A stretch of 64,000 bases of DNA from Pyrinomonadaceae bacterium (GTDB taxonomy: Bacteria; Acidobacteriota; Blastocatellia; Pyrinomonadales; Pyrinomonadaceae): contig DATIPD010000006.1 in NCBI GenBank assembly GCA_035472495.1, positions 37,312-101,311 of the forward strand, in the 5' to 3' direction. The notes beneath the pieces are model-generated. The model searched no databases and had not been told where the DNA came from. It saw only the letters and a list, made by a program, of their open reading frames with translations. The translations under genes were made by a program, and so were the position numbers. Position 1 is the stretch's first letter, and each line of letters opens with the position of its first letter. Shown piece by piece: positions 39,873 through 55,305 of the stretch.

Positions 39873-41180
39873 ATGGCTCGCAGAAGATTTCGCAGCAACC
39901 AGCGGCACGAACCCTCCACCGAGCGTTCTTTCCAGGAGTACTACCTCTCCACGCCCGCCCCGCAAACTTCCAGAACAGAACTTCTCCGACTAATCCGTGG
40001 GGGCGAAGATACGTTCCTCGAACTCAAAGTAAAACTCTCGAACCCCGAGAAGATCGCGCAGGAAATTGTGGCCCTCGCGAACACTGGTGGCGGTGTCATC
40101 GTGTTTGGTGTCAACGACCAACTGCGAATCGAGGGCGTCGATAATCCGGAAAGCGTGCAGGAAGAGTTGGTGCGCATTTGTCGCGAAGATATCGAACCTC
40201 CGCTCGTTCCGTTTATCGATCGCATTGCGTTTGACAGCGGACGTCGCGTAGTCGCGCTTGATATTGAAGGACGACGACGGCCATACCGCACCAGCGACGG
40301 CCGCTTTTTCCTGCGGCTCGGTTCAGAAAAGCGTGAAGCGACGCGCGAAGAACTCTCGAGTTTGATCGATGAATCGCAACCGCTCGGCTTGGAAAACTTT
40401 CCGGTTAGCGACGCGACGATGGCCGACATCGACGAAGGAAATCTGTGGAGTTTTCTGCGCGAATTTGAAGGCGACGTTTTCGAGAAACCTGGTACCAAAG
40501 GCTACCCAACAGCAGAGGTGCTCGAGCGAGATCTGTTACTGGCGACGGAACGCGCCGGCGAGTTAGTGCCAACAGTTGCGGGTCTGTTGCTGTTTGGGCG
40601 CAACGAACGAGTTAAAGAGTTATTGCCACGCGCCGCAGTAACCGCCACGAGGTTTGCCGGCGATACAAACCAGTCGCCAGTCGTTGAACGAATCAGTATC
40701 GAAGGAAATCTGCACACGCTTTACGAGAGCACGCTTCGTTTCATCAAACGCTACTGCGATCTTTGGGAGACCCGGCCGAAGGGTGCGCCCGCGACTGAGA
40801 CGGAAAATAGTCCCGTGGCCGCGCGCTCAAATTATCAGGGCGGCGCAGTCTGCGAGGCCATTGCTAATTTGTTGGTTCATCGTGATCTGGCTCTGCGCGA
40901 GCAAACGTCACGAGTCAACGTGTTTGACCACTCGATTGAGTTCGTCAACCCACGACGCACTTCCGGCTTTGCTCCTATAGCACAAAAGGCGATTCGCTAT
41001 GGCGTGCCGCAGCGTCTCAATCCGCAGACGGCCGGAATCTTTTCCAATCCGGCGTATGGATTGAAATTGCCGCATGGCGGCCTGCCCATGCTGCTGCGCT
41101 CGAGCCGCATTTTTTCTAATCGACGATCGGAGCTGAATGCGATCAACGATGAGTTTCGGCTGCGATTGCATGGGAGCTGA
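39873..41180 (+). CDS. AlbA_2 (Schlafen-like) / HATPase_c_4-type putative DNA-binding regulator
   Basis: GEDTFLELKVKLSNPEKIAQEIVALANTGGGVIVFGV is typical of the AlbA_2 divergent AAA domain. The C-terminal region is ATPase-like. Confidence 0.6.
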   Translation: MARRRFRSNQRHEPSTERSFQEYYLSTPAPQTSRTELLRLIRGGEDTFLELKVKLSNPEKIAQEIVALANTGGGVIVFGVNDQLRIEGVDNPESVQEELVRICREDIEPPLVPFIDRIAFDSGRRVVALDIEGRRRPYRTSDGRFFLRLGSEKREATREELSSLIDESQPLGLENFPVSDATMADIDEGNLWSFLREFEGDVFEKPGTKGYPTAEVLERDLLLATERAGELVPTVAGLLLFGRNERVKELLPRAAVTATRFAGDTNQSPVVERISIEGNLHTLYESTLRFIKRYCDLWETRPKGAPATETENSPVAARSNYQGGAVCEAIANLLVHRDLALREQTSRVNVFDHSIEFVNPRRTSGFAPIAQKAIRYGVPQRLNPQTAGIFSNPAYGLKLPHGGLPMLLRSSRIFSNRRSELNAINDEFRLRLHGS

Positions 41181-46675: not shown

Positions 46676-46816
46676 ATCGGAAATCTGAAATCGCAAGTTT
46701 TGAGTTCGAGTTTTGAGATCGAGTATTGAGATTCTGATGCTTGTGATCTGAGATTGGAGATCTGAGGTTGAAATTTGAGATCTGAGATACCTGAGATCTG
46801 AGATCTGAGATCTGAA
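46676..46816. repeat. Fam-I tract of GAGATCT(G) words (tandem and inverted)
   Basis: Includes ...GATCTGAGATTGGAGATCTGAGG... and CTGAGATCTGAGATCTGAGATCTGAAG, ending 10 nt before the first tRNA. Confidence 0.65.
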
Positions 46817-46825
46817 GTTTCACTC

Positions 46826-46911
46826 GCATGCGTGGCCGAGCAGCAAAAGCACCTGACTGTAAATCAGGCGTCATCACGACTTCGTAGGTGCGAGTCCTAC
46901 CGCATGCGCCA
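46826..46911 (+). tRNA. tRNA-Tyr (GTA), long variable arm
   Basis: Acceptor GCATGCG/CGCATGC, anticodon arm CCTGA-CTGTAAA-TCAGG, T arm GTAGG-TGCGAGT-CCTAC (atypical G55), G73 and CCA encoded. The D stem is weak. Confidence 0.75.
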
Positions 46912-46917
46912 ACGGTA

Positions 46918-46993
46918 GTCCAAAGTTCAACGTCGAAAGTCCAAAGTCCGTTTGGGTTACAAGACTTTGGACTTTGGACTCGAGACATTGGAC
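46918..46993. repeat. Fam-A (GTCCAAAG) palindromic hairpin
   Basis: Arm GTCCAAAGTTCAACGTCGAAAGTCCAAAGTC and inverted arm GACTTTGGACTTTGGACTCGAGACATTGGAC, between tRNA-Tyr and tRNA-Trp. Confidence 0.8.
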
Positions 46994-47001
46994 TGGCTTT
47001 G

Positions 47002-47076
47002 AGGGATGTAGGCTAACTGGCAAACCGTCGGTCTCCAAAATCGACTTTCTCGGTTCAAATCCGGGCGTCCCTGCCA
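47002..47076 (+). tRNA. tRNA-Trp (CCA)
   Basis: Acceptor AGGGATG/CGTCCCT (one G:U), anticodon arm TCGGT-CTCCAAA-ATCGA, T arm CTCGG-TTCAAAT-CCGGG, G73 and CCA. One D-stem mismatch. Confidence 0.7.
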
Positions 47077-47089
47077 AATAAACTTTCCT

Positions 47090-47178
47090 GGAAGGCCCGA
47101 CAGTAGAGTGCGTCAAGCAGTCCCGAAAACTGCGGCGGCCAAAAGCCGTGTACGGTTCGACTCCGTAGCCTTCCGCCA
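47090..47178 (+). tRNA. tRNA-Ser (CGA), long variable arm, C33
   Basis: Acceptor GGAAGGC/GCCTTCC, anticodon arm GCAGT-CCCGAAA-ACTGC, long variable arm, T-loop TTCGACT, G73 and CCA. The D arm is atypical. Confidence 0.6.
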
Positions 47179-47181
47179 TTT

Positions 47182-47267
47182 GGAGATGTCGCCTAACTGG
47201 TAAGGCAGCGCCCCGCTAAGGCGCCGGGAGCAATCCTGTGAGCGTTCGAATCGCTCCGTCTCCGCCA
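47182..47267 (+). tRNA. tRNA-Ser (GCT), long variable arm, C33
   Basis: Acceptor GGAGATG/CGTCTCC, D stem GCCT/AGGC, anticodon arm GCGCC-CCGCTAA-GGCGC, T arm GAGCG-TTCGAAT-CGCTC, G73 and CCA. Confidence 0.7.
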
Positions 47268-47271
47268 AAAC

Positions 47272-47347
47272 GGGGTTGTAGCTCAACGTATAGAGCGCCG
47301 GTCTGCGAAGCCGGAGGCTGATGGTTAGAATCCATCCAATCCCACCA
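47272..47347 (+). tRNA. tRNA-Arg (GCG)
   Basis: Acceptor GGGGTTG/CAATCCC, D stem GCTC/GAGC, anticodon arm CCGGT-CTGCGAA-GCCGG, T arm GATGG-TTAGAAT-CCATC (A56), A73 and CCA. Confidence 0.7.
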
Positions 47348-47352
47348 CTTCT

Positions 47353-47426
47353 TCCGAGTTCGTCCAATGGCAGGACGGGTGACTTTGAATCACTAAATCG
47401 GAGTTCGAATCTCTGACTCGGAACCA
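47353..47426 (+). tRNA. tRNA-Gln (TTG)
   Basis: U1:A72 acceptor TCCGAGT/ACTCGGA, D stem GTCC/GGAC, anticodon arm GGTGA-CTTTGAA-TCACT, T arm CGGAG-TTCGAAT-CTCTG, A73 and CCA. Confidence 0.8.
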
Positions 47427-47430
47427 ATAC

Positions 47431-47546
47431 GATTGCGGATTGCAGAATGCTGGTGGATCTTCAATCCAGCTGACGACTGGTTGCTGCCCGACTATTCAAC
47501 AAGAATCGAGTCGACTGAAACAAAATCCGCATCAGCAATCACCAAT
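47431..47546. repeat. Fam-E (GATTGCGG-type) imperfect inverted repeat
   Basis: Left arm GATTGCGGATTGCAGAATGC..., right arm ...AAAATCCGCATCAGCAATCACCAATC. Confidence 0.55.
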
Positions 47547-47620
47547 CCTAAATCGCCAGCTAGAAGAGCGATCGCTTTCTAAGCGGTAGGTCAACAGTTC
47601 GAATCTGTTTAGGGTCTCCA
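47545..47620 (+). pseudogene. degenerate tRNA-Arg (TCT)-like unit
   Basis: 76 nt with good anticodon arm ATCGC-TTTCTAA-GCGGT, T arm AACAG-TTCGAAT-CTGTT and a terminal TCCA. The acceptor and D stems do not pair in the canonical register. Confidence 0.3.
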
Positions 47621-47625
47621 TCTAT

Positions 47626-47703
47626 GGCCACGTAGCCCAATCGGCATGAGGCGCCAGTCTTAGAAACTGGTCAGTGAGAGTTCGAATCTCTCCGTGGCTA
47701 CCA
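47626..47703 (+). tRNA. tRNA with Leu anticodon TAG on a short-variable-arm scaffold
   Basis: Acceptor GGCCACG/CGTGGCT, anticodon arm CCAGT-CTTAGAA-ACTGG, 5-nt variable loop, T arm GAGAG-TTCGAAT-CTCTC, A73 and CCA. Confidence 0.6.
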
Positions 47704-47707
47704 CCAT

Positions 47708-47784
47708 GCTCGCGTGATGCAATCGGCAGACATCGGAGTTTCAAAAACTCTGTTTTCTCCGTTCGAATCGGAGCGCGAGTACCA
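47708..47784 (+). tRNA. tRNA with Leu anticodon CAA on a short-variable-arm scaffold
   Basis: Acceptor GCTCGCG/CGCGAGT, anticodon arm GGAGT-TTCAAAA-ACTCT, 5-nt variable loop, T arm CTCCG-TTCGAAT-CGGAG, A73 and CCA. Confidence 0.6.
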
Positions 47785-47789
47785 ACTGC

Positions 47790-47869
47790 GGCGCGGTACG
47801 CAAATCAAGGCAAAGCGGTCTGACTTAAAATCAGATGTTATGAGAGTTCAATTCTCTCCCGCGCCACCA
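47790..47869 (+). tRNA. tRNA with Leu anticodon TAA on a short-variable-arm scaffold
   Basis: Acceptor GGCGCGG/CCGCGCC, anticodon arm TCTGA-CTTAAAA-TCAGA, 6-nt variable loop, T arm GAGAG-TTCAATT-CTCTC, A73 and CCA. Confidence 0.6.
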
Positions 47870-47875
47870 GGCTCT

Positions 47876-47952
47876 GGCGATGAATGCGAAATGGAAAGCA
47901 GGCTGATTTTCAATCAGTTGATTTGCGGGTTCGAGTCCCGTCATCGCTGCCA
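47876..47952 (+). tRNA. tRNA-Glu (TTC)
   Basis: Acceptor GGCGATG/CATCGCT, anticodon arm GCTGA-TTTTCAA-TCAGT, T arm GCGGG-TTCGAGT-CCCGT, G73 and CCA. Confidence 0.75.
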
Positions 47953-47967
47953 GTAAGCTGGCCGGGC

Positions 47968-47994
47968 GCCCGTGGTCTGGCCGAGCGGTTCTAT
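47968..47994 (+). other. orphan tRNA 5' fragment (acceptor plus class-II-type D arm)
   Basis: GTGGTCTGGCCGAGCGGTTCTA resembles the 5' third of a Ser/Leu-type tRNA. It abuts tRNA-His with no anticodon or T arm. Confidence 0.4.
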
Positions 47995-48070
47995 GTTGGC
48001 CGTGGCCGAGTGGCTGAGGCGCGTGACTGTGACTCACGCTACGAGAGTTCGATTCTCTCCGGTCAACCCA
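47995..48070 (+). tRNA. tRNA-His (GTG) with encoded G-1
   Basis: G-1 opposite C73, acceptor TTGGCCG/CGGTCAA, anticodon arm CGTGA-CTGTGAC-TCACG, T arm GAGAG-TTCGATT-CTCTC, CCA. Confidence 0.75.
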
Positions 48071-48076
48071 ATACCT

Positions 48077-48154
48077 TAGTTTCGAGTTTCAAGTTCCAGG
48101 TTTCAAGGCACAAAGTTTCTGCACTTTGAACCTCCAACTTGGAACTCGAAACTA
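48077..48154. repeat. Fam-K palindromic hairpin (GTTTCGAG/CAAGTTCC words)
   Basis: Arm TAGTTTCGAGTTTCAAGTTCCAGGTTTCAAGGC and inverted arm GCACTTTGAACCTCCAACTTGGAACTCGAAACTA. Confidence 0.7.
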
Positions 48155-48159
48155 TTCCT

Positions 48160-48234
48160 GGAACTGTGGCCGAGAGGTGAGGCACTTGGTTGTCAACCAA
48201 GCCGATGACGGTTCGAGTCCGTTCAGTTCCGCCA
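48160..48234 (+). tRNA. tRNA-Asp (GTC)
   Basis: Acceptor GGAACTG/CAGTTCC, anticodon arm CTTGG-TTGTCAA-CCAAG, T arm GACGG-TTCGAGT-CCGTT, G73 and CCA. Confidence 0.8.
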
Positions 48235-48244
48235 TCTGTCTGGA

Positions 48245-48301
48245 GAGACATTCCTGTCTGTCCGCCGTTTTTTGCGGGACAGGCAAGAATGCCTGTCCTA
48301 C
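48245..48301. repeat. Fam-F (GACAGGAATG/CCTGTCCTAC) hairpin
   Basis: CATTCCTGTCTGTCCGC pairs with GCGGGACAGGCAAGAATG. A second copy lies at 51052-51112. Confidence 0.7.
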
Positions 48302-48304
48302 CTC

Positions 48305-48380
48305 GCTTCCGTAACTTAACTGGCAAAGTGTTGGTCTCTTAAACCAGAAGATGTCGGTTCGACGCCGACCGGAAGCACCA
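48305..48380 (+). tRNA. tRNA-Lys (CTT)
   Basis: Acceptor GCTTCCG/CGGAAGC, D stem ACTT/AAGT, anticodon arm TTGGT-CTCTTAA-ACCAG, T arm GTCGG-TTCGACG-CCGAC, A73 and CCA. Confidence 0.85.
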
Positions 48381-48387
48381 AATTTTT

Positions 48388-48460
48388 TGCGGAGAGAATG
48401 GGTATTCAAGTAGGTCTCATAAACCTTCCTTCGTCAGTTCAACTCTGGCCTCCGCAACCA
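48388..48460 (+). tRNA. tRNA with CAT anticodon (elongator Met or Ile2-type), atypical D arm
   Basis: U1:A72 acceptor TGCGGAG/CTCCGCA, anticodon loop CTCATAA on a 4-bp stem, T arm GTCAG-TTCAACT-CTGGC, A73 and CCA. The D arm is non-canonical. Confidence 0.5.
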
Positions 48461-48527
48461 ATCTCGTAGCGCTGAATCCCCTCCAACGACAACGCAAATT
48501 ATCAGTTTGCGTTACAGAACGTTTTAT

Positions 48528-48604
48528 TCAAGCGACCGATGTGGGCTGTCGGTGTCCGCCTGTTAAGCGGAACGTCGTGGGTTCGAGTCCCACCGCTTGA
48601 GCCA
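48528..48604 (+). tRNA. tRNA-Asn (GTT)
   Basis: Acceptor TCAAGCG/CGCTTGA, anticodon arm TCCGC-CTGTTAA-GCGGA, T arm GTGGG-TTCGAGT-CCCAC, G73 and CCA. Two extra nt lie between the D and anticodon arms. Confidence 0.65.
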
Positions 48605-48619
48605 AAACTCCTTGTTCTT

Positions 48620-48697
48620 GCTCGCGTACCGGTCTCCGCTTCTAACGGAGTAGCCGTAACTGGAAAGATGCGGGTTCAACTCCTGCCGCGAGCACCA
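48620..48697 (+). tRNA. aberrant tRNA-Arg (TCT)-like gene with D-arm-like sequence after the anticodon arm
   Basis: Acceptor GCTCGCG/CGCGAGC, A73 and CCA, anticodon arm CTCCG-CTTCTAA-CGGAG, T arm GCGGG-TTCAACT-CCTGC. No D arm is in the normal place; TAGCCGTAACTGGAAAG sits in the variable position. Confidence 0.35.
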
Positions 48698-48701
48698 CTT
48701 T

Positions 48702-48794
48702 CTTGGCGTAGCACAAATGGCAGTGCGGCAGGCTTATACCCTGTGAGCTCCAGATTAGAGCGCGATCCAGGTTCGAATCCTGGCGCCAAGACCA
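48702..48794 (+). tRNA. tRNA with TAT anticodon (AUA reader) on a long-variable-arm scaffold
   Basis: Acceptor CTTGGCG/CGCCAAG, D stem GCAC/GTGC, anticodon arm GCAGG-CTTATAC-CCTGT, 22-nt variable arm, T arm CCAGG-TTCGAAT-CCTGG, A73 and CCA. Confidence 0.55.
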
Positions 48795-48798
48795 CAAC

Positions 48799-48877
48799 CG
48801 ATTTCGGATTGACGATTGCAGATTGCGGATTGAGGCAACTGATTAATCGGAGATCCGCGATCGCCAATTCCCAATCG
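48799..48877. repeat. Fam-E (GATTGCGG-type) palindromic hairpin
   Basis: Arm GATTTCGGATTGACGATTGCAGATTGCGGATTG and inverted arm AATCGGAGATCCGCGATCGCCAATTCCCAATCG. Confidence 0.7.
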
Positions 48878-48882
48878 TTTCG

Positions 48883-48957
48883 GCTCCTATGGCGTAACTG
48901 GCAACGTAGCGGACTTTTAATCCGCGGTTCAGAGTTCGAGTCTCTGTGGGAGCACCA
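48883..48957 (+). tRNA. tRNA-Lys (TTT)
   Basis: Acceptor GCTCCTA/TGGGAGC, anticodon arm GCGGA-CTTTTAA-TCCGC, T arm CAGAG-TTCGAGT-CTCTG, A73 and CCA. Confidence 0.85.
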
Positions 48958-49059
48958 ATTGATTGCGGCTTTCGGAATGCGGATTTCGGATTTGAAAACA
49001 AGCGAAAACTATTAAGTCTTCAACTTCGCAATCCGAGTCCCAGCAATCCGCAATCGAAA
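48958..49059. repeat. Fam-E palindromic hairpin
   Basis: Arm AATTGATTGCGGCTTTCGGAATGCGGATTTCGGATTT and inverted arm CTTCGCAATCCGAGTCCCAGCAATCCGCAATCGAAA. Confidence 0.7.
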
Positions 49060-49060
49060 C

Positions 49061-49133
49061 GGCCGCGTGATGTAACGCAACATGCTCGCCCGATTAGCGA
49101 GTCTTCCGGGTTCAAATCCTGGCGCGGCTACCA
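49061..49133 (+). tRNA. tRNA-Ile (GAT), C33
   Basis: Acceptor GGCCGCG/CGCGGCT, D stem ATGT/ACAT with a 6-nt loop, anticodon arm CTCGC-CCGATTA-GCGAG, T arm CCGGG-TTCAAAT-CCTGG, A73 and CCA. Confidence 0.6.
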
Positions 49134-49184
49134 ACAATTCGAATTCCCCAACTTTTCAACTATTCTTAAGAAAGGAGAAAGCAA

Positions 49185-50363
49185 ATGCCTTACGAAAAGC
49201 TACCTATCGGTGGCGCCCGCAACGAGATTCTCTCGTGGGCCAACCACGACTTCAGCATCGAGGAACAGTCGATGTTGCGCAACGTTTCGCGATTGCCTTG
49301 TCTGTTCAAACATGTGGCGCTGATGCCTGATGCACACTTGGGCAAAGGCAGCATGGTTGGTTCAGTCATCGCTACGAAACAAGCGGTGATTCCGGCAACG
49401 GTCGGCGTCGACATCGGCTGCGGCATGATGGCGGTGAAGACACCGTTCAAGAGCGGCATCCTCGACGGAAAGTTGAAGGAGCTGCGCCTCGCGATCGAAG
49501 AAACAATTCCGGTCGGCTTCAACGCGTACAAAGAATCGGTTGACGAGTCTTCGTACTGGGACGGCTGGAAGGAATTTGGTGAACTGCATCAGGGCGTGCA
49601 AAGTCGGAAAGTGAAAGCGATGACGCAGCTGGGCACGCTTGGTGGCGGCAATCATTTCATCGAAGTTTGTCTGGACACAGAAAACTTCGTTTGGTTGATG
49701 CTCCACTCAGGTTCACGCAATATCGGCAAGGAGTTGGCAGAACGTCACATCTCGACAGCCAAGGGCTTGTGGCAACTGAATGAACTGCCTTCACCCGATC
49801 TTGCTTACTTCGTGCAGGGCACGCCGGAATTTGCGGCGTACTGGAAAGACTTGAAGTGGGCCCAGGGTTACGCGATGAAGAATCGCGAAATCATGATGAC
49901 GCGACTGTTACAGGTCTTCAACAAGTTGTTCAATCATCGTCAGCCCTTCAAGCCGGAACTTCAGGTTAACTGCCATCACAATTACGTTGCGCTCGAGGAG
50001 CATTACGGCGAGAAAGTTTTCGTCACCCGCAAGGGCGCAATCAATGCGGACAAAGACGCATTCGGCATTATTCCCGGCTCGATGGGCGCGAAATCGTTCA
50101 TCGTGCAAGGCCGCGGACTGGCGGAGAGTTTTAATTCCTGCTCTCACGGCGCTGGTCGCAAGATGTCGCGCGGTGCAGCCAAGCGAACTTTTAATAAGGA
50201 CGACCTGGCTCGACAAACTGCGGGCGTCGAATGTCGCAAAGACGTAGGCGTGCTGGATGAAATTCCTGGCGCTTACAAAGACATCAAAGCGGTGATGCGC
50301 AACCAGAGCGATCTGGTAAAGATCATTGCCGAGATCAAACAAGTGGTGTGTGTGAAAGGCTAG
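49185..50363 (+). CDS. rtcB: RNA-splicing/repair ligase RtcB
   Basis: 392 aa with RtcB motifs GVDIGCGM, GGGNHFIE, HSGSRNIG, NCHHNY, PGSMG and SCSHGAGR. RBS AAAGGAGAAA lies upstream. Confidence 0.92.
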   Translation: MPYEKLPIGGARNEILSWANHDFSIEEQSMLRNVSRLPCLFKHVALMPDAHLGKGSMVGSVIATKQAVIPATVGVDIGCGMMAVKTPFKSGILDGKLKELRLAIEETIPVGFNAYKESVDESSYWDGWKEFGELHQGVQSRKVKAMTQLGTLGGGNHFIEVCLDTENFVWLMLHSGSRNIGKELAERHISTAKGLWQLNELPSPDLAYFVQGTPEFAAYWKDLKWAQGYAMKNREIMMTRLLQVFNKLFNHRQPFKPELQVNCHHNYVALEEHYGEKVFVTRKGAINADKDAFGIIPGSMGAKSFIVQGRGLAESFNSCSHGAGRKMSRGAAKRTFNKDDLARQTAGVECRKDVGVLDEIPGAYKDIKAVMRNQSDLVKIIAEIKQVVCVKG

Positions 50364-50430
50364 TCCAAAGTCCAACGTCCAAAGTCAGGAATCGTCAAAC
50401 AGACTTTGGACATTGGACTCGAGACTTTGG
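50363..50430. repeat. Fam-A palindromic hairpin
   Basis: Arm GTCCAAAGTCCAACGTCCAAAGTC and inverted arm GACTTTGGACATTGGACTCGAGACTTTGG. Starts at the rtcB stop codon. Confidence 0.8.
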
Positions 50431-50441
50431 GGTCTGTCTTC

Positions 50442-50515
50442 CGGGGTGTGGTGTAACGTGAGCATCCGAGTCCTGGGAACTCGTGGCGACAGTTCAATTC
50501 TGTCCTCCCCGACCA
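50442..50515 (+). tRNA. tRNA-Pro (TGG), C33
   Basis: C1:G72 acceptor CGGGGTG/CTCCCCG (one mismatch), anticodon arm CGAGT-CCTGGGA-ACTCG, T arm GACAG-TTCAATT-CTGTC, A73 and CCA. Confidence 0.65.
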
Positions 50516-50521
50516 AATCCA

Positions 50522-50579
50522 GTCCAAAGTCCAACGTCCAAAGTCAGGATCATCAAACAGATATTGGACCTTGGACTTT
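50522..50579. repeat. Fam-A palindromic hairpin
   Basis: Arm GTCCAAAGTCCAACGTCCAAAGTC and a shorter inverted arm ATATTGGACCTTGGACTTT. Confidence 0.75.
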
Positions 50580-50585
50580 CCTCCC

Positions 50586-50662
50586 GCATCGTTGGTCCAG
50601 AGGGTTCAAGACACGGCGTTGCCAACGCTGAGACACCGGTTCGAATCCGGTACGATGCTCCA
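50586..50662 (+). tRNA. tRNA-Gly (GCC)
   Basis: Acceptor GCATCGT/ACGATGC, anticodon arm CGGCG-TTGCCAA-CGCTG, T arm ACCGG-TTCGAAT-CCGGT, U73 and CCA. Confidence 0.85.
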
Positions 50663-50672
50663 ATCAATCCTC

Positions 50673-50749
50673 GTCCAAAGTCCAACGTCCAAGGTCCAAA
50701 GCCAAGAATCGATGAACAGACTTTGGACCTTGGACGTTGGACATCGGAC
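50673..50749. repeat. Fam-A palindromic hairpin
   Basis: Arm GTCCAAAGTCCAACGTCCAAGGTCCAAAGCC and inverted arm GACTTTGGACCTTGGACGTTGGACATCGGAC. Confidence 0.8.
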
Positions 50750-50755
50750 TAAGAC

Positions 50756-50832
50756 GCTTCCGTAGCTCAATTTGGAAGAGCGCGACGCTTCGAACGTCGA
50801 GGTTGTGGGTTCAAGTCCCGCCGGGAGCCCCA
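50756..50832 (+). tRNA. tRNA-Arg (TCG)
   Basis: Acceptor GCTTCCG/CGGGAGC, D stem GCTC/GAGC, anticodon arm CGACG-CTTCGAA-CGTCG, T arm GTGGG-TTCAAGT-CCCGC, C73 and CCA. Confidence 0.85.
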
Positions 50833-50836
50833 ATCC

Positions 50837-50970
50837 ATTGGCGATTTCCGATTGCCAATTGCCGATTTTCCTCACTTCAAACTTGCGTGTCCCAAAAGAA
50901 CAGCCTCACTGTTCAAACCAAAAAGAACATACACGCTAATCGGCAATTGCCAATCGGCAATCGACAATTT
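50837..50970. repeat. Fam-E (GATTGCCAATTGCCG) inverted repeat with about 65-nt loop
   Basis: Arm ATTGGCGATTTCCGATTGCCAATTGCCGATTTT and inverted arm CTAATCGGCAATTGCCAATCGGCAATCGACAATTT. Confidence 0.7.
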
Positions 50971-50973
50971 CCT

Positions 50974-51048
50974 GCGGGAGTGATGTAGCTGGCAACATGC
51001 AAGTCTTCCAAACTTGCTTCGAGAGTTCGAATCTCTCCTTCCGCTCCA
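50974..51048 (+). tRNA. tRNA-Gly (TCC)
   Basis: Acceptor GCGGGAG/CTTCCGC, anticodon arm CAAGT-CTTCCAA-ACTTG, T arm GAGAG-TTCGAAT-CTCTC, U73 and CCA. Confidence 0.85.
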
Positions 51049-51051
51049 AAT

Positions 51052-51112
51052 GTAGGACAAGCATTCCTGCCTGTCCTCTCTAACCAAAGAAGGACAGGAA
51101 TGTCTGTCCTAC
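51052..51112. repeat. Fam-F hairpin
   Basis: GTAGGACAAGCATTCCTGCCTGTCCT ... AGGACAGGAATGTCTGTCCTAC. Confidence 0.7.
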
Positions 51113-51115
51113 CTC

Positions 51116-51191
51116 GCGCGCGTCGCCAAGCGGCTAAGGCGCTGGATTGCAAATCCAGTATTCGTGAGTTCGAGTCTCACCGCGCGCTCCA
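51116..51191 (+). tRNA. tRNA-Cys (GCA)
   Basis: Acceptor GCGCGCG/CGCGCGC, anticodon arm CTGGA-TTGCAAA-TCCAG, T arm GTGAG-TTCGAGT-CTCAC, U73 and CCA. Confidence 0.85.
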
Positions 51192-51198
51192 CACTCCA

Positions 51199-51275
51199 GT
51201 CCAAAGTCCAAGGTCCAAAGTCCAAGGTCAAGAACCGCAAGACAGACTTTGGACGTTGGACGTTGGACCTTGGAC
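51199..51275. repeat. Fam-A palindromic hairpin
   Basis: Arm GTCCAAAGTCCAAGGTCCAAAGTCCAAGGTC and inverted arm GACTTTGGACGTTGGACGTTGGACCTTGGAC. Confidence 0.8.
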
Positions 51276-51299
51276 TACTCTACGAAGGGAGGTGCCGTG

Positions 51300-51878
51300 A
51301 TGGCACTTGATGGCAGAGTTCTGCTGCTAAATCAAACCTACGAGCCGCTCGGCACCGTCAGTGTGGCCCGAGCAATAGTAATGACTTTCAAGAACAGCGT
51401 CTTCGTCGAGGAATGGGACGGCGATCGCGTTCTTCATTCGGCCCGGGAGGAATTCCCGGTGCCTTCAGTAATTCGCCGACGCACTTACATCAACGTGCGG
51501 CGCCGGCGTGAACAGTCAGGGATGAAGCGACTCCGCATCTACATGCGTGACAAGTTTCGTTGTCAGTATTGCGGCGACAAGAAGACCCTGGCTGAACTAA
51601 CGCTCGATCACATTCTGCCGCGTTCGCGTGGCGGCGATAACTCGCCGCTCAACGTAGTGACAGCATGCACCGCGTGCAACAACCGCAAGTCTAACCGGAC
51701 ACCGGCGGAGGCACGCATGCCTTTGCTGACGTCGCAGTCGGCGTTGCGGGTAAAGCTCGAACGCGTTGTGCTTTGTCACTACGCCGAGGCGCGCGCTGAG
51801 TGGCGCAAGTACCTGTTCATGGACGTGCATGACGATCGCGACGTGATGGACAGGGTGGAGCGCGAAAGACGCGCGTAA
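51300..51878 (+). CDS. HNH endonuclease
   Basis: 192 aa from the ATG at 51300, with RBS GAAGGGAGG upstream. HNH motif CQYCG...LTLDHILPRSRGGDNSPLNVVTACTACNNRKSNRTP. The track start at 51249 lies inside a repeat. Confidence 0.8.
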   Translation: MALDGRVLLLNQTYEPLGTVSVARAIVMTFKNSVFVEEWDGDRVLHSAREEFPVPSVIRRRTYINVRRRREQSGMKRLRIYMRDKFRCQYCGDKKTLAELTLDHILPRSRGGDNSPLNVVTACTACNNRKSNRTPAEARMPLLTSQSALRVKLERVVLCHYAEARAEWRKYLFMDVHDDRDVMDRVERERRA

Positions 51879-51882
51879 ATTC

Positions 51883-51988
51883 ATTGCCGATTGCTGAGCG
51901 GATTGCCGATTGCCAATTGCCGGTTTCCGATTGCCTTCAATCGAACAGGCTTTTTCAAATCGGCATTTTGTACCGGGAATCGGCAATG
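51883..51988. repeat. Fam-E inverted repeat
   Basis: Arm ATTGCCGATTGCTGAGCGGATTGCCGATTGCCAATTGCCGG... and inverted arm AAATCGGCATTTTGTACCGGGAATCGGCAATG. Confidence 0.65.
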
Positions 51989-51993
51989 CGTTC

Positions 51994-52065
51994 GGTCGGA
52001 TAGCTGAGAAGGATTAGCGTGGGTCTGAAAAACCCGAGAGGTTGGTTCGATTCCAACTCCGACCG
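51994..52065 (+). tRNA. tRNA-Phe (GAA), no encoded CCA
   Basis: Acceptor GGTCGGA/TCCGACC, anticodon arm TGGGT-CTGAAAA-ACCCG, T arm GTTGG-TTCGATT-CCAAC, G73, followed by CCG. Confidence 0.75.
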
Positions 52066-52072
52066 CCGAACC

Positions 52073-52150
52073 GAAGGATGAAGGATGAAGGATGAAGGCT
52101 GAAATGAAGTGTTTTGTTTCATCCTTCATCCTTCCGCCCTCATCCTTGAT
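52073..52150. repeat. Fam-C (GGATGAAG) palindromic hairpin
   Basis: Arm GAAGGATGAAGGATGAAGGATGAAGGCTGAAATGAAG and inverted arm TTTCATCCTTCATCCTTCCGCCCTCATCCTTGAT. Confidence 0.8.
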
Positions 52151-52155
52151 TTCCC

Positions 52156-52231
52156 GCCCGAGTAGCTCAATTGATGGAGCGCTGGTCCTACAAACCAGAG
52201 GTTGAAGGTTTAAGTCCTTCCTTGGGCACCA
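52156..52231 (+). tRNA. tRNA-Val (TAC), C33
   Basis: Acceptor GCCCGAG/CTTGGGC, D stem GCTC/GAGC, anticodon arm CTGGT-CCTACAA-ACCAG, T arm GAAGG-TTTAAGT-CCTTC (T56), A73 and CCA. Confidence 0.7.
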
Positions 52232-52235
52232 AATG

Positions 52236-52304
52236 ACAGGAGGCAGGCGGCAAAGCAGGAGGCAGTAGGTTTTGCCTGTCCCTGCACCTGCCTCCTGCTC
52301 CTGA
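52236..52304. repeat. Fam-D (CAGGAGGCAG) palindromic hairpin
   Basis: GACAGGAGGCAGGCGGCAAAGCAGGAGGCAGTAGG ... CCTGTCCCTGCACCTGCCTCCTGCTCCTG. Confidence 0.7.
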
Positions 52305-52309
52305 TCTTC

Positions 52310-52392
52310 CGGGGCGTGACTCATCTCAGCAGAACGTGGACTGCCTGGGAGCGTGGAGTTAGGAGAGGCGCGCCAGCCTCACGCCCCGACCA
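52310..52392 (+). ncRNA. tRNA-sized structured element ending in A-CCA (not a canonical cloverleaf)
   Basis: 10-bp terminal helix CGGGGCGTGA/TCACGCCCCG followed by ACCA. Internal hairpins TCTCAGCAG-AACGTGGA-CTGCCTGGGA and GAGGC-GCGCCA-GCCTC. Occupies a tRNA slot between two hairpin repeats. Confidence 0.3.
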
Positions 52393-52397
52393 GTACT

Positions 52398-52478
52398 GAA
52401 GGATGAGGGATGAAGGATGAGGGATGAACCTCCAATTCCCGTACCTTCATCCCTCCGCCCTCATCCTTCATCCCTCAT
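52398..52478. repeat. Fam-C palindromic hairpin
   Basis: GAAGGATGAGGGATGAAGGATGAGGGATGAA ... TTCATCCCTCCGCCCTCATCCTTCATCCCTCAT. Confidence 0.8.
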
Positions 52479-52482
52479 TTCT

Positions 52483-52557
52483 GGGGCTATGATCTAACGG
52501 CCATGATGCCTGCCTTGCAAGCAGGACGTAGAGGTTCGACTCCTCTTAGCTCCACCA
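52483..52557 (+). tRNA. tRNA-Ala (TGC)
   Basis: Acceptor GGGGCTA/TAGCTCC with the G3:U70 identity pair, anticodon arm CCTGC-CTTGCAA-GCAGG, T arm AGAGG-TTCGACT-CCTCT, A73 and CCA. Confidence 0.85.
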
Positions 52558-52568
52558 AAATACAGAAA

Positions 52569-52656
52569 GCAGCAGGCAGGAGCAGTAGGCAGCAGTTGAG
52601 AGTCACGGTCTAGAACCAGGAACTCCCCTGCCGACTGCCGCTGCCTCCTGCTCCTG
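52569..52656. repeat. Fam-D palindromic hairpin
   Basis: GCAGCAGGCAGGAGCAGTAGGCAGCAG ... CTGCCGACTGCCGCTGCCTCCTGCTCCTG. Confidence 0.7.
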
Positions 52657-52663
52657 ACTTTTC

Positions 52664-52743
52664 GGCGATGTAGCTCAACTGGATAACAGAGCACCGGTCT
52701 TGTAAACCGAACGATAAGGGTTCGACTCCCTTCATCGCCTCCA
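52664..52743 (+). tRNA. tRNA-Thr (TGT)
   Basis: Acceptor GGCGATG/CATCGCC, D stem GCTC/GAGC with a 12-nt loop, anticodon loop CTTGTAA (first stem pair C-A mismatch), T arm AAGGG-TTCGACT-CCCTT, U73 and CCA. Confidence 0.75.
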
Positions 52744-52787: not shown

Positions 52788-53237
52788 ATGCAGCAAAAGA
52801 TATTTCGGTTGTCGTTCGACGGGCGAAGAATGCAAATCGTAAATTCATGTTCATTCGGTTTGTCAGCGGCGAAATTGATCAGGCTTCTCGTTTCGGCGGG
52901 TCTTTTCCAGGCTGCCTCCGAACTCAGGTGGCGCGACGGCCTACCTGACTACGAATTCGACGCGCTCATCGGACTGAGAGATTGGTTCAACGCTAATCTC
53001 GAATCGCCCTTTGACCACCTGCCGCGAGCGAAATGCTATGACCGAGCAATTTGCTGGTTTAAGCCTGCGGCTCGCGAACACTTGGTTCGAGCGAGAGAAC
53101 TAGTCACAATTCTTGAAAGAAACGATGTCTTGATTTGGACAATCAGATCCCGAAGGGTTGGCTACATTTATTACGAAGACGAAACACAGGTTTTGGCAGA
53201 ACCATTTAGTGATGTCAGACCAATTTGCAGGAGGTAA
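52788..53237 (+). CDS. hypothetical protein
   Basis: 149-aa ORF directly after the last tRNA. I recognise no motif. Closely followed by the DIP1984-family ORF. Confidence 0.4.
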   Translation: MQQKIFRLSFDGRRMQIVNSCSFGLSAAKLIRLLVSAGLFQAASELRWRDGLPDYEFDALIGLRDWFNANLESPFDHLPRAKCYDRAICWFKPAAREHLVRARELVTILERNDVLIWTIRSRRVGYIYYEDETQVLAEPFSDVRPICRR

Positions 53238-53242
53238 TAGAA

Positions 53243-53698
53243 ATGAAACTAGCAGAAGCTCTAATTCTACGAGCTGATTGTCAGAAGCGTTTTGCGCAAG
53301 TAAAAGCTAGGCTGCTGCTTAACGCGCGCGTCCAGGAAGGCGACCAGCCGGCAGAAGATCCGCAGAAGTTGATTACCGAAACGGAACGCCTGGCCGATGA
53401 GCTGGTTGATTTGATCAAGCGTATCAATCGCACCAACTCTGCAACAGTCGTTGACGTTGGCAAAACAATTTCTGACGTGCTTGCTGACCGTGACGTGCTC
53501 GGCTTGCGTCGTAGCGCGTACAACGAACTGGCGCAGAACGCGTCGATTGCCTACGCGCGAGTGACGCGAACGGAAATCAAATACGTTTCGACGGTGAAGG
53601 TAGTTGAGATTCAGAAGCGGGCGGATGAGCTGGCGAAGAACTATCGCGAGCTCGACGCGCAAATTCAGGAGCTCAACTGGAAGACTGAACTGCTCTAA
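53243..53698 (+). CDS. DIP1984-family (septicolysin-like) protein
   Basis: MKLAEALILRADCQKR..., INRTN and ...ELNW..EL match the DIP1984 family pattern as I recall it. RBS AGGAGG lies upstream of the ATG at 53243. Confidence 0.6.
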   Translation: MKLAEALILRADCQKRFAQVKARLLLNARVQEGDQPAEDPQKLITETERLADELVDLIKRINRTNSATVVDVGKTISDVLADRDVLGLRRSAYNELAQNASIAYARVTRTEIKYVSTVKVVEIQKRADELAKNYRELDAQIQELNWKTELL

Positions 53699-54033: not shown

Positions 54034-55305
54034 ATGGGCAAAGAAGATTTCATCAAGGATGCGCACTACAAACCGAACGAATACATCGCGTATTACGTTG
54101 GTCGGGAATTGTCGCGGCGACATCCGGAAAAAGCAGTTCTCGAAGGCGAAACCGGGTACTTCGACCTGGAGGCATTCGTGCGCGCCGAGAAATGCGCTGT
54201 CGTTAGCGAAGCCTCAGTCTTCAACCAAATCAAAACAGACTGGACCACGCCAGAAAAAGAGCTGCGAACCAGGATCCCAAACTCGTGGCTGAACGTTCTC
54301 TGGAAGGGCCAACTTCTTGACGTCATCTTTCTTACGTTCTCCGAAGGTTGCTACCCCACCCGTCATCATTGGATCGTTGCGGACAGCGCTGAAGTCGCCG
54401 CATCGTTTTTCACAGCGGTTTGTGAATGGTCGGCAGAGGTGCGCGGTGAAGTGCTCGTCTATGAACACGGCTTTTGGAACAAGAGCGAGGAACTTTTCAA
54501 GACGATCAAGAGTGCAACCTTTGACACTCTAATCCTGCCTGATCGTCTGAAACAGGAAATCCGGAACGACTTTGTGCAGTTTCTCGCGTCACGCGAAGTT
54601 TATGAACGCTACGGTATTCCCTGGAAACGTGGCGTTCTTCTTATTGGTCCGCCAGGAAACGGCAAGACTCACACAGTTAAAGCACTGGTGAACCAACTCG
54701 CCCAACCATGCCTTTATGTTCGCGGGTTCAAGTCGGAATATTCGACCGATCAAGAAAACATCAAGGAGGTTTTCGAACGGGCGCGCATGACAACTCCATG
54801 CATCGTGGTCCTGGAAGATCTCGACTCAATGATTGACGAAAACAGCCGCGCGTTCTTTCTAAACGAGCTCGACGGTTTTGAAACCAACAAAGGAATCGTC
54901 GTGCTCGCGACCACAAACCACCCGGAGCGTCTCGATCCGGCTATTCTTGATCGCCCCAGCCGTTTCGATCGCAAGTACTACTTCCAGCTGCCGGGAAACA
55001 ACGAACGGACTGCGTATGTCGCGCACTGGAACGAAAAGCTAAACGCGGAACTGCAACTCTCAGCGCACACCATCGAGCATGTTGTCGGAGTGACTGAGGG
55101 TTTCTCCTTCGCTTATCTGAAGGAACTGTTTTTGTCTTCGATGATGCGCTGGACCTCGACTGATCGCGTCGAATCCATGGATGAAATTGTCCGCGCACAA
55201 GTGCAGCAGCTGCGCGGCCAGATGACCAACGAGAGACGCGACGAGTCGCAGTCAGGGAAACCGAGCGGTAAGGCGGCAAAGGTGCTGCGGTTCTTGAAGC
55301 GCTAG
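54034..55305 (+). CDS. Bcs1-like AAA+ ATPase with uncharacterised N-terminal domain
   Basis: Walker A GPPGNGKTH, Walker B IVVLEDLD, SRH ATTNHPERLDPAILDRPSRFDRKYYF. The pre-ATPase segment ILPDRLKQEIRNDFVQFL...YGIPWKRGVLL resembles Bcs1. Confidence 0.8.
   Translation: MGKEDFIKDAHYKPNEYIAYYVGRELSRRHPEKAVLEGETGYFDLEAFVRAEKCAVVSEASVFNQIKTDWTTPEKELRTRIPNSWLNVLWKGQLLDVIFLTFSEGCYPTRHHWIVADSAEVAASFFTAVCEWSAEVRGEVLVYEHGFWNKSEELFKTIKSATFDTLILPDRLKQEIRNDFVQFLASREVYERYGIPWKRGVLLIGPPGNGKTHTVKALVNQLAQPCLYVRGFKSEYSTDQENIKEVFERARMTTPCIVVLEDLDSMIDENSRAFFLNELDGFETNKGIVVLATTNHPERLDPAILDRPSRFDRKYYFQLPGNNERTAYVAHWNEKLNAELQLSAHTIEHVVGVTEGFSFAYLKELFLSSMMRWTSTDRVESMDEIVRAQVQQLRGQMTNERRDESQSGKPSGKAAKVLRFLKR

Follow-up and report, generated by a model that had tools for sequence, protein, structure and literature searches.

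Short tRNA-Leu genes and a long-armed tRNA(TAT) gene in a Pyrinomonadaceae tRNA array and in phages

Four tRNA genes of unusual shape

The window analysed in this study is a stretch of 64,000 nt from a Pyrinomonadaceae bacterium (Acidobacteriota; GenBank assembly GCA_035472495.1, contig DATIPD010000006.1, positions 37,312 to 101,311 of the forward strand), and it contains a long array of tRNA genes. Here, we describe four genes of this array, three with leucine anticodons (TAG, CAA and TAA) and one with the anticodon TAT. The shape class of a bacterial tRNA is usually taken as fixed: the tRNAs for Leu, Ser and Tyr are long, with a variable arm (class II), and the rest are short, with a variable loop (class I or type I). 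In several hundred related genes from phages and arrays we observed two systematic exceptions to this rule, namely Leu tRNAs that have lost the arm and a tRNA, predicted to read AUA, that has gained one. The array, the four genes and the extra arm are located in the window as follows.

46826..52743, + strand: tRNA array of 27 genes with 20 amino acids represented (ARAGORN, Rfam tRNA matches, Pfam)
47626..47703, + strand: type I tRNA-Leu(TAG), 78 nt, anticodon at 47661-47663 (ARAGORN; Rfam 59.0 bits)
47708..47784, + strand: type I tRNA-Leu(CAA), 77 nt, the most divergent of the three (ARAGORN)
47790..47869, + strand: type I tRNA-Leu(TAA), 80 nt (ARAGORN; Rfam 57.1 bits)
48702..48794, + strand: tRNA(TAT), 93 nt, anticodon at 48735-48737 (ARAGORN tRNA-Ile(tat); Rfam 56.8 bits)
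48745..48766, + strand: extra (variable) arm of the TAT tRNA, 22 nt (read from the sequence; covarying stem)

A first-pass annotation, made from the DNA letters, had reported variable loops of only 5-6 nt and the presence of A73 in the three Leu genes. Both observations hold: the loops, read from the sequence, comprise 5, 5 and 6 nt in Leu(TAG), Leu(CAA) and Leu(TAA) (TCAGT, GTTTT and TGTTAT, respectively), and A73 is seen in the ARAGORN cloverleaves. The acceptor stems start with G1.U72 in Leu(TAG) and Leu(CAA) and with G1-C72 in Leu(TAA), and Leu(TAG) has a 3-bp D stem with a 12-nt D loop. None of the three genes has the variable arm of a class II tRNALeu, i.e., more than 10 nt with a stem and a 3-5-nt loop. 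They do possess a Leu-type core (A73; a 3-bp D stem and a 10-12-nt loop with A14 and G18G19) and the combination of Leu anticodon, short variable loop of at least 5 nt and 3' ACCA that is characteristic of a type I tRNALeu.

For the TAT gene, the same annotation had described a 22-nt variable arm with a GCTC/GAGC stem and a 7-nt loop, together with A73 and the anticodon TAT, and every part of this description was confirmed. GCTC (48747-48750) pairs with GAGC (48758-48761) around the loop CAGATTA (48751-48757), a 3' linker GCGAT follows, and the minimum-free-energy fold of the gene returns five helices. The remainder of the molecule is characterized by C1-G72, U8, a 4-bp D stem, an 8-nt D loop with GG and a 7/5 acceptor/T branch. 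In all four genes, A73 is followed by an encoded CCA.

Short tRNA-Leu genes in related arrays and in phages

Conservation within arrays was assessed in the window and 41 related loci. All 39 genes with a Leu anticodon (TAG, CAA, TAA, GAG or AAG) are short (74-80 nt) and all nine TAT genes are long (88-96 nt), and the Ser and Tyr genes keep their long arms in the same loci. Counterparts of Leu(TAG) occur in 17 related loci and show compensatory acceptor-stem changes; close counterparts of Leu(CAA) are present in the related loci L002, L005 and L010. In consensus folds, compensatory changes were found at 19 of 21 pairs of the short Leu tRNA (38 genes, phage ones included) and at 21 of 23 pairs of the long TAT tRNA (40 genes), in the latter case including pairs 7-66 and 49-65, with U8 invariant. 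Therefore, both families are selected RNA structures and not artefacts. It is indeed scarcely conceivable that the tRNA finder erred on the four genes or picked up cloverleaves formed by chance in degenerate DNA. Such a view could draw on Leu(CAA), which the Rfam tRNA model does not recognise, and on the decayed state of some neighbouring genes. However, the other three genes score 57-59 bits against an Rfam tRNA threshold of 29 bits, which excludes an artefact for those three, and over 20 related loci, as well as phages of three other phyla, contain positional counterparts with compensatory changes.

The D arm links the short Leu genes to ordinary tRNALeu. Its stem has 3 bp in 36 of the 39 array genes and its loop 11-12 nt in 34 of them; the long (class II) Leu genes of phage contigs likewise have a 3-bp D stem (48 of 50), and the D loop AAT(T/C)GG(T/C)AGA is common to short and long Leu genes. 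Isotypes were compared further with a home-made, position-specific naive-Bayes classifier, cross-validated with 83% leave-one-out accuracy on ordinary isotypes when all positions were used. When short Leu(TAG) genes served as the sole training set and the positions were limited to the core and loops, it assigned 40 of 48 short TAA, CAA, GAG and AAG genes to a Leu class among 21 classes; this core-only version is informative for Leu alone. The classifier and the joint consensus fold thus delineate one short scaffold family that bears the anticodons TAG, TAA, CAA, GAG and AAG, which belong to both Leu codon boxes. One scaffold with the anticodons of both boxes points to tRNAs defined by leucyl-tRNA synthetase (LeuRS) rather than to random class I tRNAs with mutated anticodons. 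The anticodon loops of the Leu genes, like those of the TAT genes, have 7 nt and a purine at position 37.

The same type of gene is found in phages. Annotated tRNA-Leu genes of Streptomyces, Gordonia and Vibrio phages match the window Leu(TAG) along its whole length with about 80% identity. The annotated tRNA-Leu genes of Gordonia phage Sixama measure 76 nt (Leu(tag)), 74 nt (Leu(taa)) and 75 nt (Leu(caa)), and its array also contains a Ser gene of 85 nt, a Tyr gene of 88 nt and interspersed HNH genes. Lactobacillus phage LpeD carries three short Leu genes as well. Altogether, the fetched viral loci contain 33 short and 50 long Leu genes, often both in one array.

We conclude that the three short genes of the window are type I tRNALeu genes: the long arm has been lost, whereas A73, a D arm of the Leu type and at least 5 nt of variable loop have been retained. 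Judged by these features, their identity is most likely Leu, and they would be leucylated by LeuRS. Bacterial LeuRS depends on A73 and the D/T core and not on the anticodon or the arm (PMC6614811). The first-pass annotation had described bacterial tRNALeu as normally class II; taken as a strict rule this is too strong, as type I forms are known from Streptomyces coelicolor (PMC6614811) and from a mycobacterial tRNA cluster (PMC6582537). The S. coelicolor tRNALeu(CAA) is type I and leucylated, requires a loop of at least 5 nt and depends on the LSD of its LeuRS (Fan et al., 2019, PMC6614811), and the mycobacterial cluster includes a short-loop tRNALeu(TAG), with tRNAIle(TAT) occurring in clusters only (Behra et al., 2019, PMC6582537). 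The array genes resemble these bacterial type I tRNALeu in the Leu anticodon, the 5-nt variable loop, A73 and 3' ACCA, and even the loop sequences are alike (ACAGC in S. coelicolor, ACAGT or TCAGT in array Leu genes). Unlike in Streptomyces and mycobacteria, all Leu genes of the array are type I, with three isoacceptors here and up to four in sister arrays, and they belong to Acidobacteriota. The range of arm-less Leu tRNAs, known from Streptomyces and noted in mycobacterial arrays, thereby comes to include Acidobacteriota and phages of several phyla, which raises the question of how ordinary LeuRS enzymes cope with them.

A long-armed tRNA(UAU) in arrays and phages

In the arrays, the D arm of the TAT genes is class I (4 bp in 9/9, with a 7-8-nt loop), and a 4-bp D stem is also present in 13 of 14 Ile(GAT) genes. 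C1-G72 together with A73 was found in 8 of 9 TAT genes and 11 of 14 Ile(GAT) genes. The anticodon loop reads CTTATAC or CTTATAA, with A37, and A73 occurs in nearly all members. The stem of the extra arm measures 3-5 bp, and in 65 of 81 genes its loop comprises 7 nt; in Ser, Tyr and long Leu tRNAs the arm loops are mostly 4-5 nt, in long Leu mostly 4 nt. When all positions were used, the classifier gave Leu, Ser or Tyr as the best class for 9 of 76 long TAT genes (long Leu for 4 of 76), and on core positions these three were not among the leading classes. A nearest-neighbour comparison with the anticodon and the variable region masked was too noisy to assign the scaffold; it did not favour class II neighbours and did not single out Ile. 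By its sequence features, the TAT gene does not belong with the Leu, Ser or Tyr scaffolds; it has a class I core that appears to have gained a hairpin.

A hint at the origin of this hairpin came from another gene of the array.

49061..49133, + strand: comparison gene tRNA-Ile(GAT), with the atypical anticodon loop CCGATTA (C33, U37)

The anticodon loop, 3' stem and T arm of this gene are 78% identical, in register, to the extra-arm loop, its 3' part and the T arm of the TAT gene (repeat D19), which hints that the extra arm arose as a second anticodon arm. The extra-arm loop CAGAUAA or CAGAUUA also resembles the anticodon loop CUGAUAA of tRNAIle(GAU).

Outside the arrays, BLAST with the window gene retrieved an unannotated 92-nt tRNA(TAT) in Lactobacillus phage LpeD (Herelleviridae), with the arm GCTC-CAGATTA-GAGT, adjoining an HNH gene and the three short Leu genes. 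A first pattern scan of viral contigs, in which the loop sequence was fixed by the pattern, gave at least 120 stretches, and ARAGORN called an 88-96-nt tRNA(TAT) in 71 of the 80 loci returned. As the pattern had fixed the loop, the pairing of the stem was tested independently: the flanks of the extra arm paired at 3.76 of 4 positions, compared with 2.38 ± 0.09 for shuffled partners, with 32 distinct stems. A second scan was anchored only on a D-arm variant, the anticodon loop and GGTTC and left 5-34 nt free; a long variable region was present in 118 of the 120 matches listed. Its loop follows (C/U)AGAU(U/A/G)(A/G), i.e., YAGAUDR, and AGAU occurs in 65 of 66 distinct long variable regions. In total, the long TAT tRNA was found in more than 190 viral contigs. 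Cultured representatives include Lactobacillus phage 3-521 (annotated tRNA-Ile, 91 nt), Levilactobacillus phage ENFP1, the Sinorhizobium jumbo phage Phosso (annotated tRNA-Ile(tat), 93 nt) and the Synechococcus phages S-SRM01 and S-SKS1, where the gene is unannotated; the tRNA-Ile labels in the GenBank records of 3-521 and Phosso are software calls only. HNH genes lie beside the long TAT gene in LpeD, 3-521 and Phosso, and in several viral loci it is the sole tRNA gene in the fetched stretch.

Two ideas about the loop were discarded or found no support. That it always contains an Ile codon (AUU, AUA or AUC, never AUG) was ruled out by the loops UAGAUGA and UAGAUGG from the second scan, and for pairing with the T or anticodon loop of the same tRNA no consistent covariation was seen by eye, without computation. 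In a viral subfamily of the long TAT tRNA, the D stem GACT/AGTC is capped by the tetraloop TGGT and the anticodon stem can reach 7 bp. This subfamily, with members such as L084, L090, L099, L104, L113, L115 and S-SRM01 (L306 1501-1588), the cyanophage copies being unannotated, resembles allo-tRNAs and tRNASec in these features, yet its acceptor/T branch is 7/5. Two genes of about 93 nt in L006 (9282-9374) and L040 (5441-5534), with long variable regions, 6-nt anticodon loops and no ARAGORN isotype, may be degenerate relatives of the long TAT gene.

The tRNAIle(UAU) of Mycoplasma mobile and of lactobacilli are, as far as is known, ordinary class I molecules. Bacterial tRNAIle(UAU) has been described in M. 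mobile (PMC3575796) and in Lactobacillus plantarum and L. casei (Tomikawa, 2018; Uesugi, 2022; both as cited in PMC9976931). The window TAT gene shares with them the UAU anticodon, A37 and A73, and like them it is presumed to decode AUA without lysidine. It differs in the conserved 3-5-bp extra hairpin with the loop YAGAUDR, and the M. mobile and lactobacillal tRNAs need a specialised isoleucyl-tRNA synthetase (IleRS) with Arg at the wobble-contact site. In the searchable literature, in which the lactobacillal tRNAIle(UAU) papers were only partly covered, we found no description of a long-armed tRNAIle(UAU), and such an absence is no proof. The long-armed form is apparently without prior description, whereas type I tRNALeu is already known.

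A long arm combined with a UAU anticodon could also signal a mismatch of identity, in which LeuRS or seryl-tRNA synthetase charges the tRNA by its class II shape and AUA is read as Leu or Ser. Precedent comes from the nematode nev-tRNAIle(UAU), a class II tRNA charged only with Leu (PMC3333845), and from the 8/4 allo-tRNAs, whose commonest anticodon is UAU and which are found in Acidobacteria (PMC5389517, PMC7609411); moreover, the TAT gene combines A73 with an extra arm. We nevertheless regard this explanation as quite improbable. Nev-tRNAs are eukaryotic and derived from tRNALeu with Leu determinants (Hamashima et al., 2012, PMC3333845); they share class II shape and UAU with the TAT gene, which is bacterial or phage-borne and shows neither the Leu-type D arm nor the Leu-type variable arm of a nev-tRNA, but the class I D arm and an arm whose 3-5 bp and 7-nt loop are unlike those of Ser, Tyr and Leu. 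Allo-tRNAs are similar in their acidobacterial occurrence, long variable arm, UAU anticodon and mobile or defence-type loci. However, their branch is 8/4 or 9/3, their discriminator is G73 or U73, and their D stem is long and tRNASec-like and ends in a tetraloop (Mukai et al., 2017, PMC5389517), in contrast to the 7/5 branch, U8, standard D arm with GG and A73 of the TAT gene. The covariation of 7-66 and 49-65 and the invariant U8 exclude the allo-tRNA architecture, and the TAT gene is not a member of this group. The classifier results given above argue in the same direction, and the frequent occurrence of the gene as the only tRNA of a fetched phage stretch is hard to square with mistranslation of the phage's own AUA codons.

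An alternative view of the extra hairpin follows from two protein-coding genes that lie between the tRNA genes of the array.

49185..50363, + strand: RtcB RNA ligase gene inside the array (Pfam PF01139, E = 7e-122)
51249..51878, + strand: HNH endonuclease gene inside the array (Pfam HNH_5 and HNH)

RtcB is a 3'-phosphate/5'-OH RNA ligase that acts in tRNA splicing in archaea and animals. With such a ligase embedded in the array, the 15-20-nt insertion of the TAT gene could be intron-like, being excised and the ends rejoined by RtcB to yield an ordinary class I tRNAIle(UAU), and removal of the hairpin would indeed leave a variable loop of normal size. This appears very improbable. We know of no bacterial tRNA-splicing endonuclease, the hairpin, with its simple stem of 3-5 bp and its 7-nt loop, lacks a bulge-helix-bulge motif, and a relative of RtcB was found in the fetched flanks of only 1 of 220 viral loci with long TAT genes.

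Identity, use in translation and setting of the array

The first-pass annotation had left a choice between structurally novel Leu and Ile tRNAs and a recombination of scaffolds with anticodons. The former is supported by the conserved, covarying families; the latter is not supported, given the Leu-type D arm of the short genes and the class I core of the TAT gene. We therefore favour, with a probability of about 0.68, two conserved phage-associated lineages, a genuine type I tRNALeu and an Ile tRNA reading AUA, neither of which is anticodon-swapped. The TAT tRNA would have arisen from a class I-type core that acquired a short hairpin with a conserved, GAU-containing loop, and would act as an isoleucine tRNA that decodes AUA without lysidine (and thus without TilS). 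Ile (AUA) is the most likely identity of the TAT gene, given A35, U36, A37 and A73, its kinship with the Ile genes of the array, its frequent occurrence as sole tRNA and its annotation as tRNA-Ile by software. As has been suggested for other tRNA arrays (PMC8421152, PMC12803027), the array as a whole may act as a back-up supply of tRNAs or as a set that resists nucleases.

Several observations weigh against this interpretation. Leu(CAA) gave no Rfam tRNA match even in a 111-nt search and is therefore the weakest of the four genes. With all positions, the classifier grouped short Leu with long Leu genes in only 8 of 70 cases; position 9, the D-stem sequence and the T loop set the two apart, and this version drops short Leu and long TAT genes into the most heterogeneous classes. 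The long TAT genes were never placed specifically with Ile and scatter over Arg, Lys, Val and CAT. Charging of the short Leu tRNAs by the host enzyme is not assured, since the LeuRS of Escherichia coli and that of S. purpurogeneiscleroticus (SpurLeuRS) do not charge type I tRNALeu, as opposed to ScoLeuRS and SazLeuRS, which do (PMC6614811). E. coli IleRS disfavours UAU about 360-fold relative to LAU (PMC3575796). In a single RNA run, coverage of the Leu and TAT genes was zero; the run matched only Asp, Asn and Glu genes, on contigs with differing flanks. Finally, the C33 anticodon loops and the two decayed genes described below suggest that part of the array may be decaying or not used in translation.

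The rejection of UAU by IleRS makes a compensating, Ile-specific handle attractive as a hypothesis, though it is geometrically uncertain. In this scenario, the extra arm would be a functional copy of the tRNAIle(GAU) anticodon loop that serves as a handle for IleRS or another Ile-specific factor, and the arm-less tRNALeu would evade nucleases that select class II tRNAs. We consider the scenario unlikely as it stands. If it were true, phages and arrays could supply TilS-independent AUA decoding in almost any host, and the GAU-loop handle together with arm-less tRNALeu would represent an undescribed layer of phage tRNA engineering. In any case, the extra-armed UAU tRNA is widespread and often unannotated, and its loop suggests how a disfavoured UAU anticodon could become usable across hosts. 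Both shape changes also bear on the idea that phage and array tRNAs are shaped by host defences that cleave tRNAs.

All tRNA genes of the array are on the + strand, with the RtcB and HNH genes between them (ARAGORN, Pfam). With 27 co-oriented tRNA genes for all 20 amino acids and an embedded HNH gene, it conforms to the pattern of long arrays (L-arrays), in which at least 20 co-oriented tRNA genes serve about all amino acids. It shares with L-arrays and mycobacterial array units the number and orientation of the genes, the coverage of about 20 amino acids, HNH, the association with RtcB and structures unlike those of housekeeping tRNAs; RtcB has been linked to L-arrays (Santamaria-Gomez et al., 2021, PMC8421152) and HNH is conserved in the mycobacterial units (PMC12803027). 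Unlike in the surveyed L-arrays, RtcB is located inside this array, and the unit of RtcB, HNH and tRNA genes is conserved across many Pyrinomonadaceae genomes; in the 2021 survey, Acidobacteria were among the phyla with only small accretive arrays (PMC8421152). More than 20 related Pyrinomonadaceae loci bear the same type of array around RtcB and HNH. The RtcB proteins of array-bearing loci are 64-92% identical, the nearest relatives (up to 92%) coming from metagenome-assembled genomes of Pyrinomonadaceae and Blastocatellia (Acidobacteriota). HNH accompanies RtcB in most of these loci, and among the window proteins only these two recur with the array.

The flanks of the array encode ordinary bacterial proteins (a two-component sensor, a diguanylate cyclase, a molybdopterin oxidoreductase, an HtrA-type protease and efflux components). 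Only L003 and L004 have flanking genes in common with the window, the RtcB-HNH-tRNA unit being otherwise found in differing genomic contexts. The identical sequence is present in one soil metagenome run. The array sits in the chromosome of a soil Pyrinomonadaceae bacterium and comprises a phage-type tRNA set. The host uses CTG for 31% of its Leu codons and ATA for 9.8% of its Ile codons, and ARAGORN found no CAG or GAG Leu gene in the array of the window. This implies further tRNA genes elsewhere in the genome, with the array probably not being the principal tRNA set, which fits the back-up or anti-nuclease role suggested for long arrays. Within the fetched Pyrinomonadaceae flanks, no class II Leu gene was found, and a consensus scan for promoters and terminators returned nothing beyond the shuffled expectation.

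The array isotypes retain the textbook identity marks: G3.U70 in Ala (11/11), G-1 with C73 in His, C1-G72 in Pro, U1-A72 in Gln and Asn, and U73 in Cys, Gly and Thr. This indicates that the set was shaped by standard synthetases. Many tRNAs of the window and of L002-L041 have C33 in place of the near-universal U (Ala 7/11, Val 10/13, Pro 9/21, Ser(cga) 3/3 and Ile(gat) 7/14), among them the following genes of the window.

47090-47178, + strand: Ser(cga) with C33
49061-49133, + strand: Ile(gat) with C33

Possibly, the anticodon loops of the C33 genes are variants that withstand anticodon nucleases, of a kind reported for phage tRNAs. In addition, the array contains two decayed or rearranged stretches. 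The first, at about 47546-47621, resembles a tRNA-Arg(TCT) gene; ARAGORN makes no call, and its Rfam score of 28.9 bits is just below the threshold. Its T arm, anticodon arm and most of its acceptor stem are intact, the D loop lacks GG, and the gene at the equivalent position in L002, L005 and L010, ahead of Leu(TAG), is Arg(CCT). The second, at 48619-48697, has a sound acceptor stem, T arm and CCA end, with a TCT anticodon-type hairpin in the place of the D arm followed by a D-arm-like stretch (TAGCCGTAACTGGAAAG); this element is rearranged or decayed.

Such irregularities would be expected if the array tRNAs were mainly decoys or sponges for tRNA-cleaving toxins and defence nucleases, or decaying relics, among which odd shapes are tolerated or selected. 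A sponge role has been proposed for the Anabaena L-array (PMC8421152) and arrays are viewed as putative anti-defence units (PMC12803027), and the frequent aberrations, with C33 in five isotypes, the two decayed stretches and Leu(CAA) failing Rfam, as well as a repair ligase, RtcB, inside the array, fit this proposal. Nevertheless, it seems rather unlikely to us. Marks of aminoacylation identity are retained across isotypes, most array genes encode their 3' CCA, the helices show compensatory changes, and the Leu and TAT genes have 7-nt anticodon loops with a purine at position 37. Furthermore, lytic phages retain both tRNA types, and in such phages decoding is the usual explanation. Use in translation, by a type I tRNALeu and an AUA-reading Ile tRNA, remains our preferred reading of the four genes.

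Between the tRNA genes, the spacers form long imperfect hairpins composed of short tandem units such as GTCCAAA/GTCCAAC, GGATGAA/GGGATGAA and GATTGCC.

46903-47008, 48077-48154, 48238-48310, 50356-50434, 50509-50596, 50665-50761, 50837-50968, 51199-51277, 52063-52150 and 52390-52486: hairpin spacers

Three of them were folded and gave z-scores of -5.4 to -8.9, and weak Rfam matches to miRNA families correspond to these spacer hairpins. They are considered dispersed genome repeats because several match other contigs of the source metagenome, where their depth is 3-4x that of the locus. Immediately upstream of the first tRNA gene (Tyr, 46826), the heptamer TGAGATC is repeated in tandem about eight times (46735-46819), which recalls the direct repeats by which the Anabaena L-array promoter is regulated (PMC8421152).

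In many loci (L013, L014, L016, L018-L020, L022, L024, L026, L027 and L041), a tRNA-Pro(GGG) gene lies on the opposite strand about 2 kb upstream of the array or of a lone RtcB gene. It could be a landmark of integration or a conserved neighbour, and is absent from the window. RtcB and HNH are present and the array is absent in L014 and L019. Directly downstream of the array, the window encodes a DUF6847 protein (53225-53698) and an AAA ATPase (54034-55305), which are not conserved beside related arrays. About 6 kb upstream of the array, an open reading frame with a Schlafen/AlbA_2 domain (39873-41180, + strand) has a counterpart in L004 with 80% identity; Schlafen nucleases cut tRNAs, and human SLFN11 favours class II tRNAs (PMC13462974).

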